A DNA stretch of 64,000 nt from Macrostomum lignano (GCA_002269645.1 NIVC01000027.1:434001-498000), one strand, 5' to 3'. Shown: positions 17,093 through 56,779, counted from the first letter of the stretch. Notes: generated by a model from the letters alone, not told the origin. Numbers and translations are program-made.

Positions 17093-20000
17093 TTAAGCCA
17101 CAGTTGCTGCAGCAGCCACTAGCCGCTCAGACTCGCCCTCATTCCCAGTCTCCCCATCGTCCTCATCATCCAGACACCTATTGTTAGCAGCGGCAATCAG
17201 GGCGGCCTCCTCGATCTTGGCCACGCGTCGGCAGTCTTCCGGATAGCGAATAGCGCAGGCCATAAACGCTGCAGACCCGGCGACGAGCACGAACAGCCCC
17301 AGGTACATGGCCCGTCGCAAAGCAATGAACTGCCGATAATAGCTGTCAGACCCACCGGCACGAAACCAGTCGGTTAGTAGGCCCAACAGGTAGGGCGATG
17401 TGGCGTCGCCAAGCAGGTGAGAGCTGAGCAGACTCAAGCCAGTTGCCGTAGCTCTCAAGCTCGGCAGGCAGACTCGCATGCACATATCGGTGACCAGGGC
17501 CCAGTTGGTGAAGAGGGCCAACTCAGTTAAGAAGATGAAGGCGTAGCCAAGGACCAGGTAGGACCGGACGGTGAGCAGGGTGGCCATTAGGAACGGAACC
17601 GAGAGCATCAGGCCGCCAGCGCAGACCAGCGGATCCGCTCTGGCGGTTCTTCGGCGAAGTCGGCGGGCGAGCTCGGTGCCGCCGATCACACCGAAGATGC
17701 CGGCCAAGCACGTCAAGACGCCGAACACCAGCGTGGTGCTGCCCGCTTCTGATTGGCTGCCGTCTGGGTGGGGGGAGGGGTGTTGGTGTCTGATTCTTAT
17801 TTGCTGCCGTCTGTGGTGCGGGAAGGGGTGTTGGTGCCCGCTTCTGATTGGCTGCCGTTTGGGGTGGGTGAAGAGGTGTTTGTGTCCGATTCTTATTGAC
17901 TGTCGTCTGGGGTGGGGAGGGGTGGGTGTCCAATTCTTATTGGCTGCCGTCTGGGGTGGGGGAGGCAATTAGGAATGTTAAGGACAATCCTTTTCAATGA
18001 AGTTTCTCACCTCTACTGAGCACAGACAGTCTAAGCATCTCAGGTGTCCACAGAGCCAGCGCTCCAGTCACAAAGGACACCGAACTCAATCCCAGCGTTG
18101 TGAGCACAAAAGTGCTAATCTTTGACAGGGCTCGCAGATCGTCCAACCATCTGGATGGATTGATAGCCGCCGCAGCGGCCGCCGCCGTGGCCGCGGGTCC
18201 TTCGGACTGGCCTCGCCGCGGCTCCCGAAAGCAGACGGCCAGCAAGATGACGCAGAGCAGGCCCAGAGGTGGAGTGACTCGCAGAGCCCAGTTCCAACCA
18301 TCAGTGGCGTCTGATACCAGCTGGCCAATCACGAATCCGACGCCTGTGCCGAAGGGCACCTGGGGTTTTGTTTGGGGGCTTTTTTGAAGGCCGATTATGC
18401 AGGGTGATTTGCAATGTTAGAAATTGGCTTTGGGGCTTTTTAAAGGGGCCCATTTTGAGCAACCAATCTTATTAAAGACATGAGAGACAACCGGCAAGAG
18501 GCATTACTGCCCATTCCGCCGACTCCCCTGAGCAGGCACACACAAGCGCGCGGATACGTACGCAGTCATACGCAAAGGCACACATCTCTGTATGACCAGC
18601 ACTACTTTCTGCACTTTCTGCAGTTTAAACTGGCACAATATTCTATGCAAATTTCACATCAAAGCTACAGAGCTTCCTGTTTAGCTGGTGACGCTAATCT
18701 GAACACGCGTGTTTTATAATTACAGGTTGGCAGCATTCGGCACGCCATAATGAACTTCATTTTTAAATATTCAGATTTAATCAAAGGCAATATTTTATTT
18801 GCTGCGATACAAGATTTAGCGAGCGTCACTTAAGGATTAGGGAAGGGGTCGATGAGAGATCAGGGAAAGGGGTCACTGAGGGATCAGGGAAAGGGGTCAC
18901 TGAGGGATCAGGGAAAGGGGTCACTGAGGGATCAGAGAAAGGGGTCACTGAGGGATCAGAGAATTGGGTCATTGAGGGATCAGAGAAAGGGGTCACTGAG
19001 GGATCAGGGAAAGGGGTCACTGAGGGATCAGGGAAAGGGGTCACTGAGGGATCAGGGAAAGGGGTCACTGAGGGATCAGGGAAAGGGATCACTGAGGGAT
19101 CAGGGAAAGGGATCACTGAGGGATCAGGGAAGGGATCACTGAGGGATCAGAGAAAGGGGGTCACTGAAGGATCAGGGAAAGGGGTCACTGAGGGATCAGA
19201 GAAAGGGGTCACTGAGGGATCAGAGAAAGGGGTCACTGAGGGATCAGGGAAAGGGGTCACTGAGGGATCAGGGAAAGAGGTCAGTGAGGGATCAGGGAAA
19301 GGGGTCACTAAGGATCACGGAAAGGGGTCACTGAGGGATCAGGGACAGGGGTCACTGAAGGATCAGTGGAGGGGGTCACTGAAGGATCAGTGGAGGGTCT
19401 CACTGAGGGATCAGAGAAAGGGGGTCACTGAAGGATCAGGGGTGTAGTAGCCAGACAATCTGCATCACTAACCAGCTTCACAAGCGATCGCACAAACCTG
19501 CAGATTAAACAGGATCAACGCCCAAGTCCTGGCATCGTGAGCAAACAGGTCGGCAATGATGGGCGCAGACACGGTGGCATAGGAAGCCTCGCCGACACCC
19601 ACCAGACTGCGGGAGACCAGCAGCAGGCCGAACATGCTGTTTGGCACAAATGATGAAGCTAAAGTGATGCCAGACCAGAGACAGACTCCCAGCAGCATGA
19701 TGCCTTTTCGGCTGAATAGCAAACGACCTGGTTGACCGCGGTCGCCTAGATAACCAAATATCTGCAGTTTAAAGGGCATTTTACTGATTGACAGTTTTTC
19801 TGTTTAATTCCTATTTAATCCCGTTTAGGAATGCATTTAAAGATTTTCATTGTGAGTATTTTTTTAGAATCAATTAAGATTTTTAAGAATTCGCTTTGAT
19901 AGTTTTTTAAAACCAGTTTGCTATTTCTTGGAATCCATTTAGAGGTTTTCCTAAAACCGTCTGGAGGTTTCTTAGAACTTGTTGAAATTTTCTTGTGTTG

Positions 20001-23000
20001 TAACCCGGGTCGGCTTGGGTGCCCAGTCCCGAGTACAATATATATTATATGTGATATAACAGGCGTTGTGACGCTCTGTCTGTACTTTTATGAATACGAC
20101 GAGCAGGCGTGGCGACGCTCTGCGATAATAATTTGATCCCTCTGGTGTTGTGACACTCAGAGTTCACGCTGCGGCTCGAGGTGTGGTGACACTCTCGAGT
20201 GCTTCTATTCTCTATACCGTAGGGCGTACGCAATATATGGTAAACGGTACCGTACTACAGAAGCTATATGGTCTCCCGGCGTTATGACGCTCTGGCAAGA
20301 ATTCGGCCTAGCAAGCTTCCCGGAAAGAAAGGACTCAAACAGCAGGCGGCTTACCAGTGGCCAGATGACTGTTCACCGTTTATTATTCGCAGGTCTCAAG
20401 CGCAGTTTCCGACTTCTTCTTAATTCTCCAAGACTCTTCTCAATTAGGCTATTGTGTTTCTTTTATCGAAGTAGCTAATGTTGCTGTTTCTTTTATCAGG
20501 TCTCGCGCTTGCACTCTCGGAGCACACCAAAACACAAAAAGCACGCAGGTGGTGGGCAAGAGCCAGAGTCGCACCATAAATAGCACCCAAACCCTGGGGC
20601 AGACGGCCCCACCGGCTAAGCTCACCAAAACAAACCACGCCGGCCCAGCCAATCAAAACCCCGCCTAAGGGGGGAGGAGCTGCACCCGCGCCAAAGCTGG
20701 CCCGGCCGCAGCCAACCAGCCCTGAGCACGGGGCAGGGGCACGGCTGGGGAGGGGCACGCGCAAAGCCCGGCCGGGGCCAGACCCTGCCACGCCCGCCAA
20801 CCCCCCCAACCAGCCCCAAAGTGCAACGCGCCCTGCCAACTGACAAGGGCGCATGCACTACACCCTCCCCTCCTACAAAAAAAACAGGGCGGAGCTCGAA
20901 CCACGGCGACTGGGATTCCAAATTTTTTAAATAACAAAGCAAAAAAAATCAAAAACAACAAAAAAAATTGGGAACAAACTAATGCAACAGGGAAAAGCAA
21001 AAAAAAGGTTGCCGCAAGAGAAATATGAAAAAGGTACTAGTATTCTGCACGCGAGTTCGTCAGGAGCAACCACGGGGCACGGAATAGGCCTTCAAAGCTG
21101 GCGGCACAGAAAACCATCGCAGGCGGCCGGCAGGACGAGCAGATGGCCGGGCGGGACGCGCAAGTTGCCGACAGGACACGCAGGTGGCCAGCAGGAAGCG
21201 CAGATGGCCGGGCGGGAAGCGCAGGTTGCCGACAGGACGCGCAGATGGCCGGGCAGGAAGCGCAGGTTGCCGACAGGACGCGCAGATGGCCGACAGGGCA
21301 CGCAGGTTGCCGACAGGACGCGCAGATGGCCGACAGGGCACGCAGGTGGCCGGCAAGACGCGAAGGCGGCCGGGCGAGGCGCGCAGATGGCCGGGCGGGA
21401 AGCGCACGTGGCCGCCGCAGAAGCCGGCAGGAAGCGCAGGTGGCCGCCGCAGAAGCCGGCAGGAAGCGCAGGTGGCCGCCGCAGAAGCCGGCAGGAAGCG
21501 CACGTGGCCGCCGCAGAAGCCGGCACGAAGCGCACGTGGCCGCCGCAGAAGCCGGCAGGAAGCGCACGTGGCCGCCGCACAGCTGCTGAGCCATTCCCCC
21601 AGGAAGCTTGACCCCACTAGCATGCAAATAAACCCATACAGTACGAGCGTAACAACATACATACAAGTAAGCAGAAAATACAGTATGAATCGGAACTGGG
21701 CACCCTAGCGAACCCGAAGTCCAGGGAGACCGACGCAGCTTTTCAGGACCTCGAGCAGCCTGCCGGGCCGGCGCAAACCGAACAGCGGGATGAGCTCGTG
21801 ACAGAGCTGTCGGACGAAACAATCAAAACTCTGCCTAGACCAGTAACGGCGGCCTGCTCTCTGACGCTTTACCGGAGCGATATCTCTGCGGATGAAGAAC
21901 AACGCCTGCAGCAGGACCATTGACAGTGCGCTCCTCGGTTCTCGCTGCGAGTCTCGAAACAGCCGTCTCATAACCGTGAGCACTGACACGATTCCGTCCG
22001 ACTGTCCAGCCAAAATATGCTTCATCAAACGATGGCGGAGCTGACGCGCAGCTGCCGATAACGACAGCTTTTCATCATCCCATATTGCTCCCGACGCGCG
22101 ATGTGAGACAACCTCCTTGCTTTCCGGTACATCGATCTCCATAGCTTCTGACTCACTACTTCCGGAGGAGCCATCCGATGCCAGCAACTCGTCTTCTTCT
22201 TCTGTGTCGATGCTACACTCATCCGACTCCTCGCTCTCATCGTCGTCCGAGATTAGAATGTAGCCATCCGCTTCGTAATCGTTCCTCTGTCCCTGTCTCC
22301 CCTGCCTGAGACCAGCTTCCTTGCGCTGAGCTTCTTCAACTTCTCGCCTTTGCTGTACTCCCTCTTCGATGTCCGCCGGCATTCTTACACCAGTAGGAGG
22401 TATGAACGTCATTGCGAAGGTTACAGCCTCGTCATACGGGATTGATTTATCGCCCAACTGGTCGTACATCGCTCGGCGATATGGACACGATAGAATTCTA
22501 CCAGCAGTCTCAATTTCTTGGAAACGGCGTCCTGCGAGTTCCTTGTCCGGGTGCTTGTCCGGGTGCCAGAAGAGCGCTAGCTGTCGATAGACTCGCCTGA
22601 TCTCGGCACGTTCGGCTGTGTGTCCGACTTGGAGGACAGCGTACAAATCCATCTGCAAAGCAACGTACTCAAACCTGCGACACACTGTCCCTGACTCCAG
22701 ATTCTACTCCTGCTCCCCTCTTGCCAGAGCGTCATCTCCTCGGACCGTGGCCCGCGGTACCCTGCATCGTAAAGTCCCAGCGCAAATTCGAGTTGTCACC
22801 GGATGCCAGTCCGAATACCCTCCACCGATGCATAGATTTTGTAGGCAAAATTTGATTCTCGTCAAAACTTCGATGAAGATGCGATTAAAATGACTTAATG
22901 ACGCATTAACGAATTTCTTGAATGACGCATTGGCGAACTGCTCGTACTCATGATGAATGATGCATTGATGAAGTACTCGTATTTATGATGAATGACGCAT

Positions 23001-26000
23001 TCGCGAAATATTTTTCTGGCTTTTAACGATAATCGCATATGAAACTGATGAGACTTCACGATGACGAGTAACCCATTAGAATGTCACTGGCTGGCCGTAG
23101 CGATCCGGCGGCCGTCGCAACCTTCCGGACCTTCGAGGCTCAGGTGCAGCTTCCACCGGGTTATGAGTAGGCTGCGGGTCGTCAACCAACTCCATCTGCT
23201 CTTCCAGCACCTCGGCGACTTCCTCGGCGTCCTGTGGCGGCATCAGTTGAGGCCGAGTCCAAGTCTCGCATTCCGCCTCTGTCTCCGAGTCCGTCTCGTC
23301 GACCACCTCCGGCGGTGCCGCGGTCCTAACTGGTGTTTCCAGGGCGGCCGGTCGAGCGAACTTCCGGAGGTTGTTGAAGTGGACGAACTTCGACTTTTTA
23401 CGATTTGACGGGTTTTCCACTTTGAAGAGCACCTCGGATCTTCTTTCGAGCACCTTCACTGGGCCGAGCCAGCTTACGTGAAACTTTGCGGCTTCGTCTG
23501 GTTTCAGGGCGGGGCTGTAGACGAAGACATGGTCACCCTCCTGAATATCGGATCCTCGGGTTCTTTTATCGTACTGGTCCTTCTGTCGCCGCTGATAAGT
23601 ATTCAACTGCTGTCGAGCAGCGCGATGAGCTGTCTGCAATTTGTCTTCTAGCTCCTTGACGAAATTTACATGCGAATCGACAGGCTGTGGCGGCTGGTCA
23701 GTCAAGTCTATCGGTAGGCGCATCTCCGTGCCATAGATCATGTAGTGGGGAGTATAACCCGTTGCTCGATGCACGCTTGATCGGTACGCCATTAACGCAG
23801 AGCTGACGAATTCTTCCCAGTCGTTTCGTCCTGAGTCCTCTAGGCAGCACTTGAGGATGGATTTTAAACTTTTATTGAAGTTTTCTACTTGTCCATTTCC
23901 GCTCGGATGATAAGCTGTTGTTCTGATCCTGCACATTTCGCGCATCACTTGCGATTCGAAGTTTCTTCCTTGGTCGCTGTGCAAAGTACTCGGACACCCA
24001 TGTTGGCTAATCCATCGATTGAAAAGCGCCCTTGCCACCGTCCTTGCCTTCTGGTTGCGAAGCGGGTACGCGTCAGGCCACTTCGTAAACGAATCTTGGA
24101 CTGTCAGGAGATAAATGTTTCCAGCCTTACTCCGCGGTAGCGGCCCGACAATGTCCATCATGACGCAATCGAATGGTGCTGCGAATGTCAACGGTTGCAG
24201 GGGTGCTCGGTTTCGCTTTCCCGGCTTTGACTTGCAGCAGGTGGCACAACCGCGAATATATTCTTCAATGGCACGAGACAATCCTGGACGCCAGTAGCGC
24301 TGAAGCACTTTAAATTTTGTCTTCGCAAAGCCCATGTGGCCACCTCCCACTCCCTCGTGTAGGGTTTTCAAGATACGATCCAATGCCTTTCGTGGCAGCA
24401 CCATTTGATACTCATCGCGCCTGTCTTTGTTTCTCACAAGGAGCACGTTCTCTTGCAGCACCAGGTCGTCTTTTCGAGTCCAGACGGCTCTAGCCAGTGG
24501 ACTCCAAGCTGTCTCGCTTTTATCTGGAACTGGGTTTGAGCCAAGCGCTTCCTTTACTGTTCTCAAATCGTCGTCTTGATCCTGCTCGCTTGCCAGATTG
24601 CCGGCTGAGAATCGTTCAAATTCGACTGCATTTAGTCCTTCTGGATGCTGCGCACATGCCGGGCATGTCTCCGCTCCGAAATGTCTCCGTACTGGCTTCC
24701 TCGACATTGCGTCCGCGTTGCCATGCGATCGACCTGGTCTGTGAACGATGCGGTACTGAAATGGAGCCAACTTCTCCAACCAGCGAGCAACCTGTCCCTC
24801 GGCGTCACTGAAGTTTTTTAACCATTGCAGGCTGCTGTGGTCCGTTCGCAGACAGAACGCTTTTCCAAGCAGATAGTATCTGAACTTCATGATGAAAGTC
24901 ACAACCGCTAGTAGTTCTAAACGAGTCGTACAATAGTTGCGTTCGGCTTGATTTAGTGTCTTGGACCCATAGGCGATCACTCGTTCTGCTCCATCTGGCT
25001 GGACTTGAGAAAGTACCGCTCCTATGCCCATCTTCGAACTGCCATCAGTATCGAGGATAAACTCTCCGGCATCCGGGGAGAAATCCGGATGAGCCATAAC
25101 CTCTGAACTTGTCATTCGTTCCTTCAATGTTTCGAACGCCAGCTGCTGTTCCGTTTTCCATTCAAACTTTGCGTCTTTTGTTGTCAATCGAGTTAGAGGC
25201 GCTGCTATTGCGGCGAAATCTTTAATAAACTTTCTGTAATAGCCACACAGGCCCAAGAATGAATGCAGCTCCGTCGAGGATCGCGGTGTTGGCCAGTTCT
25301 TCACTTCTTGAACTTTCTCCTCATCGGTACTGATGCCAGCAGCCGACAGCGTGTGACCGAGAAATTTCACTTGCTTTTGCAAAAAGTGACACTTCTGGGG
25401 CTTCAGGCACAAATTTGCTTGCCGCAACTTGCTGAATATTTCCTCCAGTCTTCTCAGGTGTTCATCCACGTCGGTTGACCAAACCAGTAGATCGTCGATG
25501 TAGACGAGACAGGTTTTCCACATCTGCTTGTCCAGAACGGCTGCCATCAACCTGGTGAATGTTGCTGGGCTGTTCACTAAGCCGAACGGCATAACCTTCC
25601 ATCGAAATTGTCCGCGATGCGGCACTGCAAACGCCGTCTTGTCCTGATCCTGAGGTCTCACCCCTACTTGCCAAAACCCGCTGTGAAGGTCCATTGTCGA
25701 GAAGATCTTGGCGCCGTGTACTGCCTCCAGCGCATCATCGACCCTCGGCATCGGCACTGCATCCTTGACGGTGACCTCATTCAACTTCCGATAATCGACG
25801 CACATCCTCATTTCCCCTGATTTCTTCTTTACGCACACCAAAGGAAAGCACCATGGTGACTGTGCTTCTTCGATCTGCCCCTTTTCCAGCAACTCGTTGA
25901 CTTGACGATCTACTTCTGGCTGTAAGTGGGGAGGCAGACGACGCGGTGGGATCTTGATTGGGCGCGCATTCTCGGTGTTAATTTCATGCTCCACCACGGT

Positions 26001-29000
26001 AGTTAACTTGCTTGAAATCTGCTTGGTCGTGAACACATCGCTGTAACTCCGGACAAGGATTCTAAATTCTTCGTCTTCTTTCGTCGACAGTCCACAGTCG
26101 CCGTACGAGTTTGGTAGCAAGTCTGCTTCCGAAGGGCTGTTGCTGCCTTGGACCTTCGGCTCTTCCTGTGGATCGTCTCCTGACTCTACGGCTAAGAGCT
26201 TGATGGTGTTCAACGGTTCGGTGGATTCTAGGGGGCAGAACCACCCGAGCGTACAACCTTGGCGAATTCTGACTGGCTCTTCCGTGATATTGATGAGTCG
26301 AGTCGGCAGACGGCTGCCGCTATTTGGGATCACTAAGGCCTTAGCAAGCCAGCGGCCAGCTGCCAAATCGTTCGCTCCGAGATTCTCAGTTAGACCGACA
26401 CACCCTCTGTTCCGTCGTCCTTTGCTCTCCAGCCTTGCTGACAGAACTGCTTGATGACCTGGCGGTATTGTGCTGGACCTTGTCGCCAAAATTCTGCAAA
26501 CGATCGGGCGCTCAGCTTGCCATCGGAACGGGATTGCAGTGTCCTGCACTGAAAAGACAGCTGTCTTGTAGTCGATAACGCAACTGTTGTCCCTGCAGAA
26601 GTCGGATCCCAATACCAGTTGGTACTTCACTCCGCTGACTACCAAGGCTGGAGTATCTATTACTTTATCAGCGATTGACAGTCGCAACAGGACTGTTCTC
26701 TCGATTTCGATCGGGCTGCCGTTTGCTAAGCTAACATAGCCTTCAGCACCGGCCAAATCTCTGACGCTCTGTTTCGGCATACTTTGGTAAGCTTCCCGTG
26801 AGATAATGGTGCAGGAAGCTCCCGAGTCCACTAGCGCGTTCACCCTCCGCCCTGCGATTGAGGCCGTAACATATATCGACGCAGGATTGATTTGAATTGA
26901 CTGAGGTGCGTTGACGGTGATTGGGCGCTGCGACTGTGCAAAACCGGCTAGTTGATGGTGAGGTGCAGTACCGGACGCTGGAGGCTGATGAGGCACTGTA
27001 ACGGACACTGGATGCTGATGAGACTCAGTACCGGACACTGTAGGCTGATGAGGCGCAGTACCGGACACTGGAGGCTGATGAGGCACTGTACCGGACACTG
27101 GATGCTGATGAGACACAGTACCGGACACTGGAGGCTGATGAGACGCTGTACCGGACACTGGATGCTGATGAGGCACTGTACCGGACACTGGAGGCTGATG
27201 AGGCGCAGTACCGGACACTGGATGCTGATGAGGCGCAGTACCGGACGCTGGAGGCTGATGAGGCGCAGTACCGGACACTGGATGCTGATGAGGCGCAGTA
27301 CCGGACACTGAATGCTGATGAGGCGCAGTACCGGACACTGGAGGCTGATGAGGCGCAGTACCGGACACTGGAGGCTGATGAGGCACTGTACCGGACACTG
27401 GATGCTGATGAGATGAAGTACCGGACACTGGATGCTGATGAGGCGCAGTACCGGACACTGGATGCTGATGAGGCGCAGTACCGGACACTGGATGCTGATG
27501 AGCCGCAGTACCGGACGCTGGATGCTGATGAGATGAAGTACCGGACACTGGATGCTGATGAGGCGCAGTACCCGACACTGGATGCTGATGAGGCGCAGTA
27601 CCGGACACTGGATGCTGATGAGCCGCAGTACCGGACGCTGGAGGCTGATGAGGCACTGTAACGGACACTGGATGCTGATGAGACTCAGTACCGGACACTG
27701 TAGGCTGATGAGGCGCAGTACCGGACACTGGAGGCTGATGAGGCACTGTACCGGACACTGGATGCTGATGAGACACAGTACCGGACACTGGAGGCTGATG
27801 AGACGCTGTACCGGACGCTGGAGGCTGATGAGGCGCAGTACCGGACACTGGAGGCTGATGAGGCGCAGTACCGGACACTGGATGCTGATGAGGCGCAGTA
27901 CCGGACACTGGAGGCTGATGAGATGAAGTACCGGACACTGGATGCTGATGAGGCGCAGTACCGGGCGTTTGATGATGATGAGATGAGATGACGACTTGTT
28001 CGGAGGCTGACGAATTGCAGGGGCTCACTTGCCTCCAGCTGGTGGGCCCCTCTTGCCTTTTCCCGGCTTTGGGCACTGGAATGAGAGATGGCCTATCTCC
28101 CCGCAGTTGTAGCACTTGACACCGCTACGCTGCTTCGAGCTGGACGGAGCCGCCTGCTTGGATTGTTGCTTGTCTTGAAGGCCGGGTTCGGGCGGCTCCT
28201 GCTGGCCCTGCTGCATCTGCTCCATCCGTCGGATCTTTTCTTCCATTTCCTTTACTTTTTGACGCAGTTGCCGTAGCTCCTCGTCTTTGCCGGTGTCACC
28301 TGTCGACGTTTCGGTGGCAAAGGCATTCAGCCCAGCCCTGGGTCTGGCTTTGGACTGGGTCGAAGACGCCTTCTGGGCTGCTTCAAGTTGTCTTACTGTT
28401 CGAATGGCATCGGTGAGGTTGGCCGTCTGCTGCAGGTACAGTCTTTCTCGGACAGTGTCGGTTACTCGAACACCTTTTAGAAATCTGTCTTTCGCCAGCT
28501 CTGTCCTGGTGTCGGCATCCGCGGTGGGGAAGGCATTGCGCACCAACTCCAGCAGCTCGTCCCCGTAGGTCTCCACAGACTCCTTGTCTAGCTGATCTCG
28601 ATTCGATAATTCAAAACGGTAGTCCTGGGCTGTTCTGTTCATGGTGAACCGCGCCAGCAGTGCATCCGTGAATTCCCCGTACTCGATGTCGTCTGCCAAG
28701 TCCAGCTTATCAACGGCAGCGTAGGCTGTTGTGAGGTCGAGTAGGCCGATCAGGTGCGGCCGCCTGGCTTCTTCTTCTATACCGACAGCCTCGCAGTACT
28801 CGTTGAAACTCTGCAGCCATAGGCTGAAATTCATCGTTGGTATGTACTTGGGCGGCTTCGAGAGTCGTGGCGCTGCTCGGTCGGCGTTGGCTCTGAGGCG
28901 CGCAGCCAGCGCATCGATCAGTTGGTCCATAGCTTGATCACCCATGGCCGAAGTCACTGAATACCGTTGCTACTCTTTACTCTGAGGTGGTGATAGCTAT

Positions 29001-31730
29001 CAATCTCTGATAACCAATCAGTTGTCTGTCACCGTGATCAATGTCTTTTGCGGTAGGGCAATAGCCGCAGGCGATAAGCAAAAGTCGTTTTAATAAGAAA
29101 AACGCTCACAATATGACAGCAATTTTCATAGAAAGCAACTGAGCCGACTTTCAATCTTTGGGGACAGGGTCCCTGTTCGGGCGCCAATTTGTTGTAACCC
29201 GGGTCGGCTTGGGTGCCCAGTCCCGAGTACAATATATATTATATGTGATATAACAGGCGTTGTGACGCTCTGTCTGTACTTTTATGAATACGACGAGCAG
29301 GCGTGGCGACGCTCTGCGATAATAATTTGATCCCTCTGGTGTTGTGACACTCAGAGTTCACGCTGCGGCTCGAGGTGTGGTGACACTCTCGAGTGCTTCT
29401 ATTCTCTATACCGTAGGGCGTACGCAATATATGGTAAACGGTACCGTACTACAGAAGCTATATGGTCTCCCGGCGTTATGACGCTCTGGCAAGAATTCGG
29501 CCTAGCAAGCTTCCCGGAAAGAAAGGACTCAAACAGCAGGCGGCTTACCAGTGGCCAGATGACTGTTCACCGTTTATTATTCGCAGGTCTCAAGCGCAGT
29601 TTCCGACTTCTTCTTAATTCTCCAAGACTCTTCTCAATTAGGCTATTGTGTTTCTTTTATCGAAGTAGCTAATGTTGCTGTTTCTTTTATCAGGTCTCGC
29701 GCTTGCACTCTCGGAGCACACCAAAACACAAAAAGCACGCAGGTGGTGGGCAAGAGCCAGAGTCGCACCATAAATAGCACCCAAACCCTGGGGCAGACGG
29801 CCCCACCGGCTAAGCTCACCAAAACAAACCACGCCGGCCCAGCCAATCAAAACCCCGCCTAAGGGGGGAGGAGCTGCACCCGCGCCAAAGCTGGCCCGGC
29901 CGCAGCCAACCAGCCCTGAGCACGGGGCAGGGGCACGGCTGGGGAGGGGCACGCGCAAAGCCCGGCCGGGGCCAGACCCTGCCACGCCCGCCAACCCCCC
30001 CAACCAGCCCCAAAGTGCAACGCGCCCTGCCAACTGACAAGGGCGCATGCACTACACTTGGAATCATCCAGGTTTCTTAGAATCAGTTAATAGGTATTTT
30101 TAGAATTTGTTTGGATTTCTTAGAATCTGTCACGAGATTTATCAAAATCTGTTAAGAGTGACTCTGCTTAATTCTTTCTTAAAATCTGCGTAACGATTTC
30201 TTAGAATTTGTTCAAATGTTTCTTAGAATCCGTTAAGAGGTTTCTTAGAATCCGTTAAGAGGTTTCTTAGAATCCGTTAAGAGGTTTCTTAGAATCCGTT
30301 AAGAGGTTTCTTAGAATCCGTTAAGAGGTTTCTTAGAATCCGTTAAGAGGTTTCTTAGAATCCGTTAAGAGGTTTCTTAGAATCCGTTAAGAGGTTTCTT
30401 AGAATCCGTTAAGAGGTTTCTTAGAATCCGTTAAGAGGTTTCTTAGAATCCGTTAAGAGGTTTCTTAGAATCCGTTAAGAGGTTTTTTTAGAATCCGTTA
30501 AGAGATTTCTTAGAATCCGTTAAGAGGTTTCTTAGAATCCGTTAAGAGGTTTTTTAGAATCCGTTAAGAGGTTTTTTAGAATCCGTTAAGAGGTTCCTTA
30601 GAATCCGTTAAGAGCTTTCTTAGAATCCGTTAAGAGGTTTCTTAGAATCCGTTAAGAGGTTTCTTAGAATCCGTTAAGAGGTTTCTTAGAATCCGTTAAG
30701 AGGTTTCTTAGAATCCGTTAAGAGGTTTTTTTAGAATCCGTTAATAGGTTTCTTAGAATCCGTTAATAGGTTTCTTAGAATCCGTTAAGAGATTTCTTAG
30801 AATCCGTTAAGAGGTTTTTTAGAATCCGTTAAGAGGTTTCTTAGAATCCGTTAAGAGGTTTCTTAGAATCCGTTAAGAGGTTTCTTAGAATCCGTTAAGA
30901 GGTTTCTTAGAATCCGTTAAGAGGTTTCTTAGAATCCGTTAAGAGGTTTCTTAGAATCCGTTAAGAGGTTTCTTAGAATCCGTTAAGAGGTTTCTTAGAA
31001 TCCGCTAATAGGTATTTTTAGAATTCGTTTGGATTTCTTAGAATCTGTCACGAGATTTCTCAAAATCTGTTAAGAGTGACTCTGCTCAATGCTTTCTTAA
31101 AATCTGCGTAACGATTTCTTAGAATTTGTTCAAATGTTTCTTAGAATCCGTTAAGAGGTTTCTTAGAATCAGTTTAGAGGTTTTATAAACCCAAATTTTT
31201 GTTCATCATTGTGATTGATAAAAAGATTTAATAAAATTAACTAATACAACAATTTTAGTTTCCCAGAAATAGAAAGTACAATGCTAGAAGAAAGCTTCAG
31301 AACTTTAAAGGTAAGCAGAGCTAAGCAGAGTACAGCTAAAAGAAAAAAAATTCAACAACACACTCACCGGACACAGCATCATATAAGACAGGATGAAGCA
31401 AGTCTGCAGCAGTCCAGAATCTTTGAAATCAACTTTAAAACTGCTTTTAATTCTGTGCAAGACAGCTGCCACTGTGCTTCGATCGGCATAATTTAACAAA
31501 TTCACAAGGCAGAGCAACCCGGCTGAGACGTATGCAGAGCCGCCGCTGCATCTACGGTGATGCCGCTCAGTAACTAGCGGTGCCTCATCTTCATCCGAAG
31601 CTAATGTTGATGAAGAAGATGAGGCATTTGCACCAGCATCTGACTGAGTCTGGGATGCCAGAGCTACGTAACGTCTGTGAGAGCCGCTTTGCGCCCTGGA
31701 GTCATCCAGCAGACTTGAACTGCTGGCCAT
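17093..31730 (-). CDS. SPNS1: Spinster-family MFS lysosomal transporter, 543 aa
   Basis: Exons 31730-31368, 19761-19498, 18359-18011 and 17748-17093 join in frame with GT-AG sites (1632 nt). Motifs: LLNYADRSTVAAVL, FGYLGDR, RSLVGVGEASYATVSAPIIADLF, WNWALRVTPPLG, RATATGLSLLSSHLLGDATSPYLLG. The SPNS paralog assignment is approximate. Confidence 0.9.
17749..17960. repeat. Diverged ~45-50 bp repeat in spinster intron 3
   Basis: About 4-5 copies of CAGACGGCAGCCAAT(A/C)AGAA...CACC on the minus strand; the last copy includes the real acceptor. Confidence 0.75.
18835..19440. repeat. Minisatellite, 24-bp unit GGGATCAGGGAAAGGGGTCACTGA, spinster intron 2
   Basis: About 25 copies read directly. Confidence 0.95.
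19996..20862 (-). repeat. 3' LTR (867 bp)
   Basis: No difference from 29190-30056 found by eye, and the ORF-track peptides are identical. On the minus strand: TATTTAT at 20582-20576 and AATAAA at 20384-20379; CCAAT box at ~20651-20655. Confidence 0.95.
20863..20874 (-). other. Polypurine tract AGGAGGGGAGGG
   Basis: Purine run abutting the TG start of the 3' LTR on the minus strand. Confidence 0.85.
21115..21580. repeat. GC-rich tandem repeats (~20/40-bp units) in the element's 3' UTR
   Basis: GCCGACAGGACGCGCAGATG and GCCGCCGCAGAAGCCGGCAGGAAGCGCA units; they generate many overlapping repetitive ORFs. Confidence 0.85.
21705..22652 (-). CDS. J-domain (DnaJ/Hsp40 type C) protein carried by the retrotransposon, 315 aa
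   Basis: MDLYAVLQV...EIRRVYRQLALFWHPDKHPDKELAGRRFQEIETAGRILSCPYRRAMYDQLG is a complete J domain with HPD. An acidic tract and a helical C-terminal region follow. The ORF is intronless and lies between pol and the 3' LTR. Confidence 0.9.
   Translation of the reverse strand: MDLYAVLQVGHTAERAEIRRVYRQLALFWHPDKHPDKELAGRRFQEIETAGRILSCPYRRAMYDQLGDKSIPYDEAVTFAMTFIPPTGVRMPADIEEGVQQRREVEEAQRKEAGLRQGRQGQRNDYEADGYILISDDDESEESDECSIDTEEEDELLASDGSSGSSESEAMEIDVPESKEVVSHRASGAIWDDEKLSLSAAARQLRHRLMKHILAGQSDGIVSVLTVMRRLFRDSQREPRSALSMVLLQALFFIRRDIAPVKRQRAGRRYWSRQSFDCFVRQLCHELIPLFGLRRPGRLLEVLKSCVGLPGLRVR
23076..28115 (-). CDS. pol: Pol polyprotein (repeat spacer, aspartic protease, RT, RNase H, integrase)
   Basis: PR LVDSGAS; RT LVYIDDLLV; RNase H LDTDGS...NYCTTRLELLAV; IN H-H-C-C (LHEGVGGGH...CATC), MDIVGP...HSDQGRNF...QVENFN; C-terminal WLGP motif. 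The ORF is in the -1 frame relative to gag. Confidence 0.95.
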   Translation of the reverse strand: MLQLRGDRPSLIPVPKAGKRQEGPTSWRQVSPCNSSASEQVVISSHHHQTPGTAPHQHPVSGTSSHQPPVSGTAPHQHPVSGTAPHQPPVSGTAPHQPPASGTASHQPPVSGTVSHQHPVSGTVPHQPPVSGTAPHQPTVSGTESHQHPVSVTVPHQPPASGTAAHQHPVSGTAPHQHPVSGTAPHQHPVSGTSSHQHPASGTAAHQHPVSGTAPHQHPVSGTAPHQHPVSGTSSHQHPVSGTVPHQPPVSGTAPHQPPVSGTAPHQHSVSGTAPHQHPVSGTAPHQPPASGTAPHQHPVSGTAPHQPPVSGTVPHQHPVSGTASHQPPVSGTVSHQHPVSGTVPHQPPVSGTAPHQPTVSGTESHQHPVSVTVPHQPPASGTAPHHQLAGFAQSQRPITVNAPQSIQINPASIYVTASIAGRRVNALVDSGASCTIISREAYQSMPKQSVRDLAGAEGYVSLANGSPIEIERTVLLRLSIADKVIDTPALVVSGVKYQLVLGSDFCRDNSCVIDYKTAVFSVQDTAIPFRWQAERPIVCRILATRSSTIPPGHQAVLSARLESKGRRNRGCVGLTENLGANDLAAGRWLAKALVIPNSGSRLPTRLINITEEPVRIRQGCTLGWFCPLESTEPLNTIKLLAVESGDDPQEEPKVQGSNSPSEADLLPNSYGDCGLSTKEDEEFRILVRSYSDVFTTKQISSKLTTVVEHEINTENARPIKIPPRRLPPHLQPEVDRQVNELLEKGQIEEAQSPWCFPLVCVKKKSGEMRMCVDYRKLNEVTVKDAVPMPRVDDALEAVHGAKIFSTMDLHSGFWQVGVRPQDQDKTAFAVPHRGQFRWKVMPFGLVNSPATFTRLMAAVLDKQMWKTCLVYIDDLLVWSTDVDEHLRRLEEIFSKLRQANLCLKPQKCHFLQKQVKFLGHTLSAAGISTDEEKVQEVKNWPTPRSSTELHSFLGLCGYYRKFIKDFAAIAAPLTRLTTKDAKFEWKTEQQLAFETLKERMTSSEVMAHPDFSPDAGEFILDTDGSSKMGIGAVLSQVQPDGAERVIAYGSKTLNQAERNYCTTRLELLAVVTFIMKFRYYLLGKAFCLRTDHSSLQWLKNFSDAEGQVARWLEKLAPFQYRIVHRPGRSHGNADAMSRKPVRRHFGAETCPACAQHPEGLNAVEFERFSAGNLASEQDQDDDLRTVKEALGSNPVPDKSETAWSPLARAVWTRKDDLVLQENVLLVRNKDRRDEYQMVLPRKALDRILKTLHEGVGGGHMGFAKTKFKVLQRYWRPGLSRAIEEYIRGCATCCKSKPGKRNRAPLQPLTFAAPFDCVMMDIVGPLPRSKAGNIYLLTVQDSFTKWPDAYPLRNQKARTVARALFNRWISQHGCPSTLHSDQGRNFESQVMREMCRIRTTAYHPSGNGQVENFNKSLKSILKCCLEDSGRNDWEEFVSSALMAYRSSVHRATGYTPHYMIYGTEMRLPIDLTDQPPQPVDSHVNFVKELEDKLQTAHRAARQQLNTYQRRQKDQYDKRTRGSDIQEGDHVFVYSPALKPDEAAKFHVSWLGPVKVLERRSEVLFKVENPSNRKKSKFVHFNNLRKFARPAALETPVRTAAPPEVVDETDSETEAECETWTRPQLMPPQDAEEVAEVLEEQMELVDDPQPTHNPVEAAPEPRRSGRLRRPPDRYGQPVTF
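26953..27970. repeat. Coding 27-bp tandem repeat (~37 x 9-aa HQ[H/P]PVSGT[A/V/S][P/S])
   Basis: Read directly in the DNA and in the 1679-aa ORF, upstream of the protease. Confidence 0.95.
28025..28945 (-). CDS. gag: Gag (capsid-like region + CCHC zinc knuckle)
   Basis: First ATG at 28945 (the ORF track starts at GTG 28957); helical capsid-like region with a RDQ..ESV..Y motif; CYNCGEIGHLSFQC knuckle; TGA at 28027-28025. Confidence 0.9.
   Translation of the reverse strand: MGDQAMDQLIDALAARLRANADRAAPRLSKPPKYIPTMNFSLWLQSFNEYCEAVGIEEEARRPHLIGLLDLTTAYAAVDKLDLADDIEYGEFTDALLARFTMNRTAQDYRFELSNRDQLDKESVETYGDELLELVRNAFPTADADTRTELAKDRFLKGVRVTDTVRERLYLQQTANLTDAIRTVRQLEAAQKASSTQSKARPRAGLNAFATETSTGDTGKDEELRQLRQKVKEMEEKIRRMEQMQQGQQEPPEPGLQDKQQSKQAAPSSSKQRSGVKCYNCGEIGHLSFQCPKPGKGKRGPPAGGK
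29169..29186 (-). other. Primer binding site for tRNA-Lys(UUU)
   Basis: TGGCGCCCGAACAGGGAC lies 3 nt after the 5' LTR; this is the canonical 18-nt tRNA-Lys3 PBS (as in HIV-1). Confidence 0.92.
29190..30056 (-). repeat. 5' LTR (867 bp)
   Basis: Direct repeat of 19996-20862; followed by the PBS on the minus strand. Confidence 0.95.
30220..31010. repeat. Minisatellite, 22-bp unit TTAGAATCCGTTAAGAGGTTTC, spinster intron 1
   Basis: About 36 copies; degenerate relatives also occur at ~19860-19995 on the other side of the retrotransposon. Confidence 0.95.
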
Positions 31731-37766: not shown

Positions 37767-40016
37767 CATTGCCCAAAATTTCTCCTCATGGCAATGACCC
37801 ATGGCAATGGCCGGCCATTGCCTAGAATTCCAATTCCAATGCAACCAATTAATTCAAGCCAGTTTTTATCCAGCATCTTGCAAAGCATATTTTGCATCAG
37901 TCAATTCAAAATGTTTATTTTAAGATGTAAATAATTAAACTGGCACAGGAATTGCAAAATCGACAGTACAAAAAGCACAGTGTCAGTGTATCATGTAAAC
38001 TTTTGTCGGTGATGAACATCATACTGGTCGTTAAAGTCACTAAATAAAAAATATTAAACTAGACTGTCATTCTTATTCTTTCAGTAATTCTACGAGTACA
38101 ATTTGCTGATTCCTGTAGAAGTAAAGATTGCATGCCTAATTAAAGGAACATCCGTGAAAGGTGCAATTGTTGAAGGCAAACTTCGTACCAACAGAATAGG
38201 CAGCTTCAGTGCTAACACTAACCTCCGTCGATACTGCAGTCTCACCGACGATCTCAACAGCATCAGCATGTTCGGGTGGCCCAGCTTCTTGCTCTAGATC
38301 ATGACGATTCAATGCCACCTGAACAGACTCACTCGTCTTTTGAAGCGACCGGTTGCGACGCTTGGCTAGGTACCTCCTAGTCGTTCGCTCGCTCAGCTGT
38401 CCAGTAATGCTCATTATATTGCTCATGCTGTGCCCTGCCGCCTCGAGATCGCATATTCGCGTGACCCTGTTTTAGAGTGCAAATTTATATAGTTGGATTC
38501 ATGAGTAATTGGTAACATAACATGTATCATAACATAATTAAAGTTACTATTATTAATTTATCAGTCTTACCGAATGCAATGATTTGTGTAGGTCTTCGCA
38601 AGTCCCGCCTTCATACTCAATTTTCTCATGAAGCCACTCAGATAATTCTCTCCACGGTTCTGCTTCGAGGAGAAAACAGGGCCTCCATCGTTGCGGCTGG
38701 CCAAAGGACGAGGAAACAGATTGTTGTCTTTCGTTGTAACTGGAAGCAGCTTGAGGTATTTCTCCACCTTTTCCACGTCGTAAATTCTGGCCTGCTTGTT
38801 GTCCGGCTGCTTCTTGGCCTTCTCTGGATCTGCTGACTTATTTTTCGAGGGCAACGGAGGCAGACAGTAGAACGGCTTTCCATCAGAGTCGACGTGCAAT
38901 TGAAGTGAGCTTCTATCCTTCAAGAACTTGAGGTGCTCCTGGCCTCGCTCGCCAAAGCTGTATATGATGTAGAATAAGAATTTGTCCTGCTCAACTTCAG
39001 CTGTGCTGCCTTGGAAGTAGATCATCAGCTTCCTCATGTCCCCCTCCTCGATTGGCTCAAACTGCTGCGTCCTCCCACCACTCTGGTGAAAGTCTCGAAC
39101 CTTCACACGCAGCATGCTATTTGCAGAAGAAAAGTCTTCTCCATTGATGATGTCAACGGTTAGCTTCTCAATCATCCACAAATAGTGCTGCAGTCCAGCC
39201 CTGATGCACACCAGCGATGCGGGCAAGTAAGGTTTGCCGTCAATCTTCTTCAGTTTAAAGTAGAAGTAGCGAATGTATTGGTTGAGCACCGAATTCGGAA
39301 TGGTTTGTAAATTGCGCTGAAGATTTTCCTCTGTGAGGAATGTCTTGAACCGCTGTCCATGGCTGATCATCTGCTTCCTGCTGTCTGCTGGTAGGCTGTC
39401 AATCTCGGCGATGTCCATGGCGCTGATATCTACGCCACCTTCCTGCAGGAGCGGCAGATGCTCATTGGGCTCGGGCTCCTTTTGAATGAATTCGAGAAAT
39501 CTAGCGAACTCATTGTCCCTTCTGTCATTGTAAGAAGCCTCCGAAACAAAATTCAATTTGTCCTTAGTCACGTTGCCCAGCTCACTGCAGGGCAAATGCT
39601 TCCAATTAATGAGCGGTGCCTCCATCTCTGCAGCCGTCCGCTTTTCTCTATCTGAGATTTGACCTCTAGACATGCAAATATTTATATTTGTAATTAATTT
39701 AGGGGTGGGTGCAGAGTAAGGGGTGGGTGACTTCAGGTGCGCGACTTAAAGGTGAGACATAGGCGAGGTGGAGGTAACCTTAGGCCTATCTCAAATCCCC
39801 TTAGAAGCATCGACTGATAAGAATTCAAGATAGTGTCCATAAAGTGCATAGATTACGTAAGAGTTTTGAAATTTTAAGCAATGGAGGGTTCATCGGAAGT
39901 CAGAGTTTAAGGCAATGGCCTTTGACACAAGCCATGGTAGCCGCAGAGTGGCGGTAGCCGCGAGTGTCAATTAGGCCATTGCCTTTAACTCTGACTTCCG
40001 ATGAACCCTCCATTGC
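37767..40016 (-). mobile_element. Crypton-type (tyrosine recombinase) DNA transposon, apparently complete
   Basis: Contains a spliced YR gene, interrupts a copy of the dispersed repeat, has a 6-bp direct repeat CATTGC at 37767-37772 and 40011-40016, and has terminal GCAATG/CATTGC motif clusters. Confidence 0.75.
38136..39673 (-). CDS. Crypton / DUF3504-like tyrosine recombinase, 477 aa, 1 intron
   Basis: Exons 39673-38571 and 38466-38136 (GT-AG intron of 104 bp; 1434 nt in frame). Motifs: YLPASLVCIRAGLQHYL, FGERGQE (R), YTNHCIR (HxxR), IMSITGQ, RRY (Tyr nucleophile). Confidence 0.88.
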
Positions 40017-43336: not shown

Positions 43337-46300
43337 TCATGGTGAGAAGCGATCAGGCGCGCGGCATGCACGGGTGCTACGGCGGGGCAACGCAGCCCCA
43401 TGCTCCTGGGTTGGACCCTCCTGTCCCGTAGCAGGGTCTTCGTCTCTTGAGTCCTCGTCGACGTTCGGAACTGGAGCGTCGGTTTCATAGCTATCCTCCT
43501 CGTCGGTGGCGAATGGATCGGCCGCGGGCGCCAGTTGGTTTGTACTGGCCAGGTGCAATCCATTTTTAGCCAGAATCCATGCGGTGTTGCGCCCTGACGT
43601 CATTAGAAATGTGGCTGAGTTGGTGCTTGCGGAGGCGGTAGGCCGATACATGACGCCGTCACCTTGCTCAAAGTGCGTCACCACCGGTACTCTGAGCTTT
43701 TTGCCGAACAGTATCTCGGCCGGGCATTGCCCCCGCGACGATGCTGAGTTCCGATGGTGGAGCAGCACTTTCTGCAGAAAATGGCTGAATTCCATGTGCG
43801 TAATTCTCTCTGACCACGCGCGCAGTGCAGCTTTGACGGTCTGTACAGCGCGTTCGGCCGCTCCGTTTGCCTGTGGATAATAAGCTGGCGATTCAAGTTT
43901 ATGGACACCATTGGCCCGTAGCCAAGAGTAGAGGGGATCACCGATGAACTCTGGTGCATTATCGGACACTACCAGCTCGGCCACTCCAAAGCGTGCGAAC
44001 ACTGCGCGCAAACACTGCATAACTGATTCGCCAGTTCTATTCCGACAGGGGAATGCCTCTATCCAGCCAGAAAATGTGTCAACGATGACTAGAATGTTAC
44101 CGGCGTCCTTCACATAGGCCCAGTCCATATGGATACGTTGAAACGGGTACGAAGCTGCCGGCCAGTGGTCTCTGTCATTTCCCAAGCGAGGTCGCAAGTG
44201 GCAACAGCCTGGGCAGCGCTGGACAAACTGGGTTACATCCTGCTGCATGCCAGGCCACCAGCAGGACGCTGAGAGCAGGTTGTACGAAGCTTGTGCACCT
44301 GAATGGGTGTCATGAACGGCCTCAAACGCTGCCTTGCGCAGCCGCGGTGGTATAAACACGCGTCTCTGCATATAGAGAAGCCCGTTCTCCAGCGTTAGTG
44401 TCTCCGCAACCTTCTTGAAGGATGCCTCTGCCTGACTGCAACTCCTCCAATTGCCGGAGCGTACACGCTCCAAGATGCGTTGAGCGAACGCGTCAGTACT
44501 CAGTTCGGCTGCAACCCTATCTGCGTCAATCACCGGTGCCTCAAAAGCCACAGCATTAATAGCTTCAAACGTCTCCTTGTCGTCCGAGGTGCAGTCGTCA
44601 AAGCGCAGTCTAGAAATTGCGTCAGCATGGGGAATGCTGCTCCCTCGCGCGTAACGGATGTCAAAGTCGAACTGCATTAAGTACATGGCCCAGCGGCCAA
44701 TCCTCGCTGACGTATTTAGCGGAATCCCGCTTCCATAGAGGCGCAGTAGCGGCTGATGATCTGTCTGAATCACGAACTTGCGACCGTGTAGGAAATGCTT
44801 GAGTCGGGAGACGGCCCAGAAGATTGCAAGTGCTTCGCGTTCGATGTTTGAATAGTTGCTTTCAGCGGCCGAAAGGGTACGGGAGACGTATATTACCGGA
44901 TGACCCTCCTGCGTTGCCACGGCGGCGAGTGCACCTTTGGACGCATCTGTCGTCAGAATCAGCTCTTTAGTCAGACTGTATGGCTGCACGACCGGCGCGG
45001 ATGCAATCTCCGCTTTCAGATTATTGAAGGCTCGGGAACACTCGTCTGACCAGGTGAACGGAATGCCAGCCTTTCGCAGTCTGTTAAGCGGAGCAGTTTT
45101 GCCTGCAAAGTTCGGAATCAATCGTCCGAAGAAATTGACTAGACCTAGAAACTGGGAGAGCTCCGTCTTGTTTTTCGGTACGCATACATGGCGAATCTTC
45201 TCTACGAGACGCTCGTCTGGCTGGATTCCGGCGGCGGAAATCCGGAAGCCTAGAAATGACACAGAGTCAGAGTAGTTGATGCACTTGGATTCGTTTATAG
45301 TCACTCGCTTCTCGGTGAGGCGCTTCCTGACTGCCGCTAGTCGCTTCTCCAAGACGACTGCGTCCGGTGCGTGTACGAGAATATCATCTTGGTAGATGAG
45401 TAGACCTTTAATATCACCCAAAATGGACTCCATTGTGCGTTGGAAGATGAAGGAAGCGTTTTTCATCCCCATTTGAAGCCTATTGACGCGGTAGAGCCCC
45501 CGGGATGTGTTTATTACGGATAAATCCCGAGCGGAATCATCCAGTTCGATCTGCCAATAGGCAGAACGCAAATCCACAGTAGCGAATGTCTTTGAATTCT
45601 TGAGCCGTGAGAACATCGTCTCGACGTTTGGAATGGGGTAGGAATCTGATTGGATTTTTGCGTTGACGTGTACGCTATAGTCGGCACACATTCTTAATGA
45701 GCCATCCTTCTTCTTCACCCACACGACGGGCGACGCGTTGTTGACAGGGCCCTCAATGGGCTCGATGACGCCCAACATTTGCAATCGATCCAGCTCCGCG
45801 TTGATCTTGGCCTCCAGTGCGATTGGTACGGGCCGAGCCCTACAAAACTGTGGCCTGGCTCCGTCCACGAGCTCCATTTTGGCTTTCACGCCCTTAATTG
45901 TCGGCAGAGGTTCCACAGCCTGCTGGATGTAAGATGGCAAGGCCGTAGCGTGAAAGAGTTTATCTGACTGCAGTAGATCACGGCCGATAAGACCATGAGC
46001 CTTGCTTGAGGCAACAACCATAAGCTCTGCTGGGTGCAAACGTCCTCGGAGCTGCACAGCGGTGCACAATTTGCCCAGTGTACGCATGACGTGACCATCA
46101 AAGGCCTCAAGGCGGCGAAAGCATTTTTGCAGGTGCGGGCGACCCAGCGAAATCCACTGCGCACTTGAAATCACTGAGACAGACGCCCCAGTATCAACCT
46201 GCATCCTCAGGCTTCTGCCATCGACGACCACCGTTTCGATAGTCTCGCTGATAGCGTGCACAGAACTTGCGTCGGTGAGGTGCATGATGGATCCCGGTGA

Positions 46301-47983: not shown

Positions 47984-56779
<8,796 letters not shown>

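Follow-up and report, generated by a model that had tools for sequence, protein, structure and literature searches.

A Ty3/gypsy retrotransposon clade of Macrostomum lignano encodes a J-domain protein between pol and the 3' LTR

In gypsy elements, env is made by splicing, and the primer-binding site (PBS) of Osvaldo is that of tRNA-Lys. Polyomavirus T antigen carries a J domain, and DNAJ1/2 act with SUVH1/3. LTR retrotransposons with other cargo in the third open reading frame (ORF3) have been described: bdelloid rotifer elements contain DEDDy and GDSL ORF3s (PMC5408684), such non-env ORF3s being family-specific and typically expressed from a spliced message, and plant aORFs are likewise non-env cargo of LTR elements (PMC7264820). 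In C. elegans, Cer1 exports its genomic RNA via the spliced accessory protein CERV (PMC10309623). Viral class C J-domain proteins (JDPs) exist (PMC10939069), and in the host proteins SILENZIO (PMC8616336) and DNAJC9/Djc9/Dnj4 a J domain is tied to chromatin readers or histones, bringing Hsp70 to chromatin. The accessory proteins that we found described are mostly env products, nucleases, esterases and RNA exporters.

Here we analysed a stretch of 64,000 nt from Macrostomum lignano (GCA_002269645.1 NIVC01000027.1:434001-498000), hereafter the window. It contains, on the minus strand, a young Ty3/gypsy (Metaviridae) LTR retrotransposon with a TG...CA LTR pair, a PBS, a polypurine tract, a target-site duplication (TSD), and gag followed by pol in the order protease (PR), RT, RNase H (RH) and integrase (IN). 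The 5' LTR (29190..30056, minus strand) and the 3' LTR (19996..20862, minus strand) are identical in sequence; the exact repeat covers 868 nt (19996-20863 and 29190-30057), within which the LTR proper is 867 nt long. The 4-bp TSD lies at 19992..19995 with its partner copy at 30057-30060, and the polypurine tract at 20863..20874 (minus strand). The 18-nt PBS (29169..29186, minus strand) is the exact complement of the 3' end of tRNA-Lys(TTT) plus CCA, and the matching tRNA is encoded by a host gene (L130); a tRNA pattern search gave eight sites. The tRNA-Lys PBS, together with the clades listed for M. lignano in PMC12801592, hints that the RT clade is possibly Gmr1/Osvaldo. Gag (28025..28945, minus strand) has 306 aa with a CCHC zinc knuckle, and the pol frame (23076..28124, minus strand), open for 1682 codons, comprises a repeat region, PR, RT, RNase H and IN, the integrase core of the window copy having a short in-frame deletion relative to sister copies. 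The last part of gag is shared with the pol frame, and a candidate heptamer, GGGAAAA (28058..28064, minus strand), lies in this overlap, so that pol is presumably expressed by a -1 frameshift. Upstream of the protease lies a tandem repeat of 34 copies of 30 nt (26959..27982, in frame with pol), which adds about 340 codons rich in Pro, His, Gln and Ser between the gag overlap and the protease, and GC-rich tandem repeats occupy the 3' untranslated region (21118..21579). The element is inserted in a 22-nt minisatellite array (19859-19977 and 30197-31183), and the window is rich in tandem arrays.

The env position of this element is occupied by an intronless ORF of 315 aa, ORF3 (21705-22652, minus strand), which starts 423 nt past the pol stop (23076). 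Its residues 2-64 (22461..22649, minus strand) match the Pfam family DnaJ (PF00226) with an E-value of 5.5e-18 and a score of 65.3 bits against a cut-off of 27.8, and the HPD motif is present at residues 30-32 (22557-22565). In the AlphaFold model, the helices of the J fold span residues 3-6, 15-28, 37-54 and 57-66, with pLDDT 91-95 over residues 1-60, and the top Foldseek matches are J domains, several of them superposing at an rmsd of about 1 Å over 63-68 columns. The J domain is followed by a conserved helical extension (about residues 66-100) and an acidic linker (together 22068..22457, minus strand; net charge -25), of which residues 122-196 are modelled with pLDDT under 50, and then by a basic five-helix domain (residues 196-315; 21708..22067, minus strand; net charge +17, pI 11.9) with the conserved motifs R..L...G, Q.L.F..RD and GRR.W. 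ORF3 contains no transmembrane (TM) segment, the highest 19-residue Kyte-Doolittle mean being 1.33, and no N-glycosylation sequon. With its N-terminus formed by the J domain, it is not an errantivirus-type Env glycoprotein, as the initial annotation had argued. It is also not a class A/B JDP (DNAJA/DNAJB), having no Pfam match to a G/F region or β-sandwich and an all-helical model. The initial annotation was thus right about an intact, intronless J-domain ORF of 315 aa in the env slot, about apparently identical LTRs, about the acidic tract and about a C-terminal region of no recognised family (no Pfam family above cut-off); of the span that it gave, 21705..22654, the start holds, and the end moves to 22652, the two extra nucleotides being the AG before the ATG.

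Homologues of ORF3 sit after pol in six further families (B, C, D, E, F and G), with representatives of B, C, D, F and G 23-34% identical to family A, to which the window element belongs. Full-length open copies make up 3 of 5 in B, 15 of 15 in C, 17 of 17 in D and 10 of 10 (essentially full-length) in G. In families B, C and D, the sequence 3' of ORF3 recurs upstream of gag, and ORF3 is therefore inside LTR pairs, which are 98.4-99.5% identical. These proteins share a layout in which an HPD J domain leads through an acidic linker to a basic five-helix domain: HPD is retained in A, A2, B, C, D, D2 and F, in two of the three E copies read and in 5/5 homologues from outside the assembly that include the N-terminus, while all eight proteins tested for charge have a negative linker (-14 to -52) and a positive C-terminal domain (+6 to +17), in which R, L, G, Q, RD, R and W are invariant. 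On this layout, additional modules are found in some families. Between the J and helical domains, the ORF3 of family D contains a chromodomain (Pfam E 1.4e-12) whose best solved matches are Swi6/HP1 (E 1.6e-10); it is limited to families D and D2 and absent from the window's family A. Its third aromatic cage position, as we take these positions to be, is non-aromatic in L033 and P0015. A TatD-like domain has been appended in families E (E 1.6e-7) and G (E 9e-5). Family E (L036-L038) combines J(HPD), helical and TatD-like parts, and in one locus (L129) the TatD-like part alone is left after pol. The ORF3 of family G (558 aa; L127:3179-4852, G000:C647) has a degenerate J domain without HPD, followed by helical and TatD-like domains, the latter without several metal-ligand positions. 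Because the family G ORF is open without HPD, Hsp70 stimulation is not the sole selected function, and this loss implies that the helical domain would have a function of its own. One family-F element (L125:3222-4961) is truncated by an insertion encoding a different, apparently Penelope-like RT, and 8 of the 21 family-A copies (L012-L016, L018-L020) have a Trp codon at the position of the window's ORF3 stop, giving a frame of at least 361 codons.

Compared with the described systems, ORF3 resembles the rotifer and plant cargo as an extra, family-specific ORF between pol and the 3' LTR, but in the flatworm the cargo joins an Hsp70 co-chaperone module to a basic domain with no significant match. 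With env elements of the Errantivirus and Osvaldo types it shares the third-ORF position, an acceptor adjoining the start codon and the tRNA-Lys PBS, whereas its product is a soluble J protein without TM segment or sequon. Like CERV, whose mRNA is spliced (PMC10309623), it is a non-env accessory protein of a Ty3/gypsy element; it differs in its J domain, none being mentioned for CERV in the abstract of that paper, and no search suggested homology. The parasite-encoded N-terminal HPD J domain with a separate targeting region recalls T antigen and viral class C JDPs, from which ORF3 is set apart by its LTR retrotransposon host and by a partner domain that is unrelated in the fold searches run. 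Likewise, the host chromatin J proteins named above are comparable, but here the adaptor is encoded by the element, and homology beyond the J domain was not detected. Family D, finally, is a gypsy element with a chromodomain as chromoviruses are, except that the chromodomain lies inside ORF3 and not at the integrase C-terminus; the window element itself is not a chromovirus, its pol having no chromodomain in Pfam.

In the 764-Mb host assembly, family A is represented by 21 full-length ORF3 matches of at least 99% identity, 20 of them without an internal stop, and pol lies directly upstream of ORF3 at 28 of the 30 loci fetched. Among nine copies with flanks read, including that of the window, there are five distinct 4-bp TSDs, two copies have no TSD and the same flanks as each other, and the other two likewise show no TSD. 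The copy counts exceed the real insertions because the assembly is redundant, as it is described in PMC12801592. When the 150 best RT hits were inspected, an ORF3 hit was found within 5 kb downstream in 26/29 at 95% identity or more, in 49/59 at 59-80% and in 4/62 at 51-57%, a count that predates family G, 18 of the 24 contigs at 57% being matches of the family G search by eye. In an RT-RNase H tree of 384 columns, from which long-branch rows and near-duplicates were omitted, the ORF3 carriers fall together in a single clade (98/96), apart from 17 other rows and joined by L133 and P0048, which are placed there by their RT-RNase H sequence; an earlier 162-column tree including long-branch rows gave the same group (90/88).

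Selection on ORF3 was estimated by NG86 on codon-aligned pairs. For the whole ORF3, dN/dS is 0.16 for A/A2, 0.24, 0.14 and 0.19 for pairs of B, 0.25 for C and 0.22 for D, ratios that are rough because several dS values are near saturation. The J domain gives 0.07-0.16 in three pairs, dS being saturated in two others, the C-terminal domain 0.19-0.28 and the chromodomain of family D 0.16, with integrase controls at 0.08-0.26. Within family A, variation amounts to 8 nonsynonymous and 4 synonymous codons, too little and too young to inform on selection. Between A and A2 (L034), dS is 0.19 in pol and 1.4 in ORF3, with DNA similarity restarting about 6 nt before the ATG, which suggests that ORF3 cassettes may be exchanged by recombination. 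The initial annotation had named a single copy, or disruption or neutral drift in sister copies, as fatal to its reading; instead, ORF3 is multi-copy and present in seven families counting A, it lies with RT within LTR pairs in B, C and D besides A, and it is under purifying selection. These data indicate that a single gypsy clade has long carried ORF3 as an accessory gene, whose frame has stayed open and which evolves under purifying selection; it is almost certainly functional cargo.

The C-terminal domain was also used as a profile against 1.84 billion representatives, yielding ten hits. Seven are true homologues, of which four are Logan proteins, two are JGI proteins and one is a gene model of M. 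lignano; the remaining three are repetitive proteins judged spurious. In this search the domain was found in element-type proteins only. For two outside proteins, the best match in the M. lignano assembly has no more than 46% and 56% identity, and they thus come from other lineages. The JGI ORF3 P0014 and the JGI pol P0045, which belongs to the same clade, are each recorded on a 7008-nt contig, suggesting the same pol-ORF3 linkage. A metagenome scan gave 80 loci that match the J domain only, none matching the C-terminal profile, and scans of viral contigs for ORF3 homologues were empty. Compared with host J domains, that of the element shows 39-52% identity, and the nearest named sequences are DNAJB2/B6/B8-like (39-47%). 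The tree of element and host J domains proposed in the initial annotation, built on 68 columns, did not resolve the donor; 9 of 15 element J domains group in one starred clade, and a single origin is possible. Database proteins that are nearly identical bear the name M. lignano. In UniRef, fused gene models bear automatic 'J domain-containing protein' labels; such gene models in the M. lignano genome include transposon cargo.

We folded the C-terminal domain alone with AlphaFold and obtained five helices with pLDDT 88 and pTM 0.81. It has no significant match in PDB, VIA, BFVD, Pfam or Atlas, and Foldseek found nothing at E ≤ 0.001 in PDB or BFVD, which does not make the fold new. The best VIA match (Z 8.0, AppA SCHIC / B12-binding cap bundles) is in the range common for helical bundles, and a PDB profile search returned designed helical proteins only. 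The structure prediction and fold search envisaged by the initial annotation thus provided a model and no significant match. The domain may resemble the SRI (Set2-Rpb1 interacting) domain; SRI is absent from Pfam matches at E ≤ 10 and from the fold and profile matches listed. DnaJ-X (PF14308) reached an Atlas feature score of 0.76, lead level only, with no Pfam match and no Atlas match using the homologue P0014. Both leads are unsupported by Pfam, Atlas or fold searches, and a DNAJC9-type histone-binding domain is not among the Pfam or fold-search matches listed.

A 3' splice-acceptor-like sequence, a pyrimidine-rich tract plus CAG (22653..22666, minus strand), abuts the ORF3 ATG. An AG stands right before the start codon in 6/10 lineages against a background of 0.073 per position (naive binomial P 2.5e-5, which ignores kinship among lineages), and a YAG or TAAG ends within -16 to +1 of the start in 10/10. 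This acceptor pattern suggests that ORF3 is likely translated from an env-style spliced subgenomic mRNA. Family E has TG after the acceptor, and the A of its ATG would have to come from an exon further upstream. Contigs of four runs, taken by guess to be RNA, show no joint to the ORF3 acceptor when compared with 20864-30056; contigs lose rare forms, and the missing joint does not count against splicing. In one run, a contig leaves out 136 nt of the 5' LTR (window 29399-29534, GT..AG, element strand), possibly a small intron in the leader. No run recorded as RNA is among the matches listed. In supplement 2 of PMC12801592, row 695 lists a cluster annotated 'DnaJ domain, score 65.2' that is mildly heat-induced (log2FC 1.2); its score is close to the 65.3 of ORF3, which was obtained with a newer Pfam version, and this may be coincidence. 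Six gene ids looked for are absent from that supplement, whose id scheme is a different one.

How would such a protein serve the element? ORF3 may be expressed through a spliced subgenomic RNA, the route taken by env and by other ORF3s, and act as a soluble class C JDP whose HPD would trigger ATP hydrolysis by host Hsp70; recruitment of Hsp70 by ORF3 in the HPD-bearing families is probable. The basic helical domain, with the chromodomain or TatD-like domain in some families, would dock ORF3 on the chromatin or nucleic acid of the element, and the Hsp70 thus delivered might strip or remodel a repressive complex so that the element stays transcribed. Precedents are SILENZIO, a J-domain protein acting with HSP70 on TE chromatin, and VANC21, a TE-encoded anti-silencing protein (both PMC8616336). 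As judged from sequence, the anatomy of ORF3 fits a role on chromatin or nucleic acid better than one in the folding of virus-like particles (VLPs): its C-terminal domain is basic, family D has a chromodomain, and families E and G have a TatD-like domain. We put forward, tentatively and with somewhat less than even confidence, an Hsp70 adaptor that may act on the chromatin or nucleic acid of the very element encoding it and so relieve silencing. In a fuller form, which we consider doubtful, the helical domain and swappable chromodomain or TatD-like modules would constitute a transposon system that brings Hsp70 to the element's heterochromatin and dismantles silencing. Counted against a role on chromatin are the restriction of the chromodomain to D and D2, its non-aromatic third cage position in L033 and P0015, the dispensability of HPD in G, the basic domain, which suits RNA binding equally, and the lack of an informative fold match.

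RNA is indeed the target in the rather unlikely alternative of a Rev/CERV-like adaptor, in which the Arg-rich helical domain would bind unspliced genomic RNA and Hsp70 would remodel the ribonucleoprotein for export or hand-over to Gag. The basic domain with its conserved GRR.W loop, the probable spliced expression of ORF3, the CERV precedent in Cer1 and the TatD-like domain of E and G, a nucleic-acid-processing fold, are all in line with it, but it leaves the HP1-type chromodomain of family D unexplained, and RNA binding is itself a prediction. Host chaperones assist viral assembly, and ORF3 might instead, as in the first option of the initial annotation, recruit Hsp70 to help fold Gag or Gag-Pol, assemble VLPs or uncoat them, a role for which the intact HPD J domain would serve and the repeat of about 340 codons in pol might create a need. 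We regard this as unlikely, since the parts with which class A/B J proteins bind clients, a G/F region or β-sandwich domain, are missing from ORF3, the added chromodomain and TatD-like domain suggest nucleic acid or chromatin, and L128, a relative outside the clade, has no ORF3 match in the fetched stretch.

Small-RNA loading depends on Hsp70/90, and ORF3 could be a decoy: by drawing Hsp70 away or firing it to no purpose, it would deprive Piwi/Argonaute loading of the chaperone or set HSF1 free. The use of the heat-shock response via HSEs by other M. lignano LTR families (PMC12801592) would fit such a decoy, which, however, needs no conserved basic helical domain, the domain with dN/dS 0.19-0.28 here; moreover, the LTR of the window element is without a canonical three-unit HSE. 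A decoy is accordingly quite improbable, and the earlier idea that ORF3 blocks Piwi loading has no direct support. Barely credible is the passive capture of a functionless host DnaJ retrocopy, for which the intronless ORF and the resemblance to host J domains speak. Against it, the ORF is open across families with synonymous sites near saturation and dN/dS 0.14-0.25, none of ten host genes fetched shares the region beyond the J domain, and the profile search found the C-terminal domain only in proteins of element type. One-off passive capture is refuted as far as sequence can refute it.

We found no J-protein-encoding retrotransposon in the literature covered, Repbase, Dfam, GyDB, subscription journals and bioRxiv supplements being outside its scope. 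'DnaJ' and 'chaperone' have no mention in PMC5408684, PMC6338049 and PMC6431247, and DnaJ has none in PMC13524379, PMC12786077 and PMC8775202. The catalogue of 137 LTR families of M. lignano in PMC12801592 does not mention DnaJ, Hsp40, J domain or chaperone in its main text, and in its five supplements DnaJ appears only as a transcript-cluster annotation in file 2; the element family is probably catalogued there by RT, without ORF3. Non-env ORF3 cargo is already known in kind; by the literature covered, J-domain cargo in an LTR retrotransposon is new. With an Hsp70 co-chaperone gene that is under selection across a whole clade, the activity of the transposon becomes linked with proteostasis and chromatin remodelling. 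If the Hsp70-targeting system is true, it would be the mirror image of plant host J-protein silencers and an animal LTR-retrotransposon anti-silencing factor working through a chaperone. RNAi works in M. lignano, and because the families are young and multi-copy in a tractable model, localisation, interactome and knockdown are directly testable, with natural variants (HPD lost, chromodomain gained, TatD-like domain gained) as built-in contrasts. In addition, M. lignano is a model of stem cells and regeneration with transgenesis (PMC12801592).

The window holds several other features. A second, unrelated gypsy element (43337-47194, minus strand) has a single gag-pol ORF of 1285 aa (PR, RT, RH and IN) and is placed far from the J clade, at the end of a long branch. 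At 49636-55900 (plus strand) there are exons of a NACHT/NWD1-like STAND NTPase gene, and a 323-aa ORF at 62877-63848 (minus strand) has an OTU-like cysteine protease domain (E 1.4e-6). A 368-aa ORF at 38567-39673 (minus strand) has a weak QRICH1 match (E 0.0014) and resembles a fragment of a Crypton-type tyrosine recombinase.
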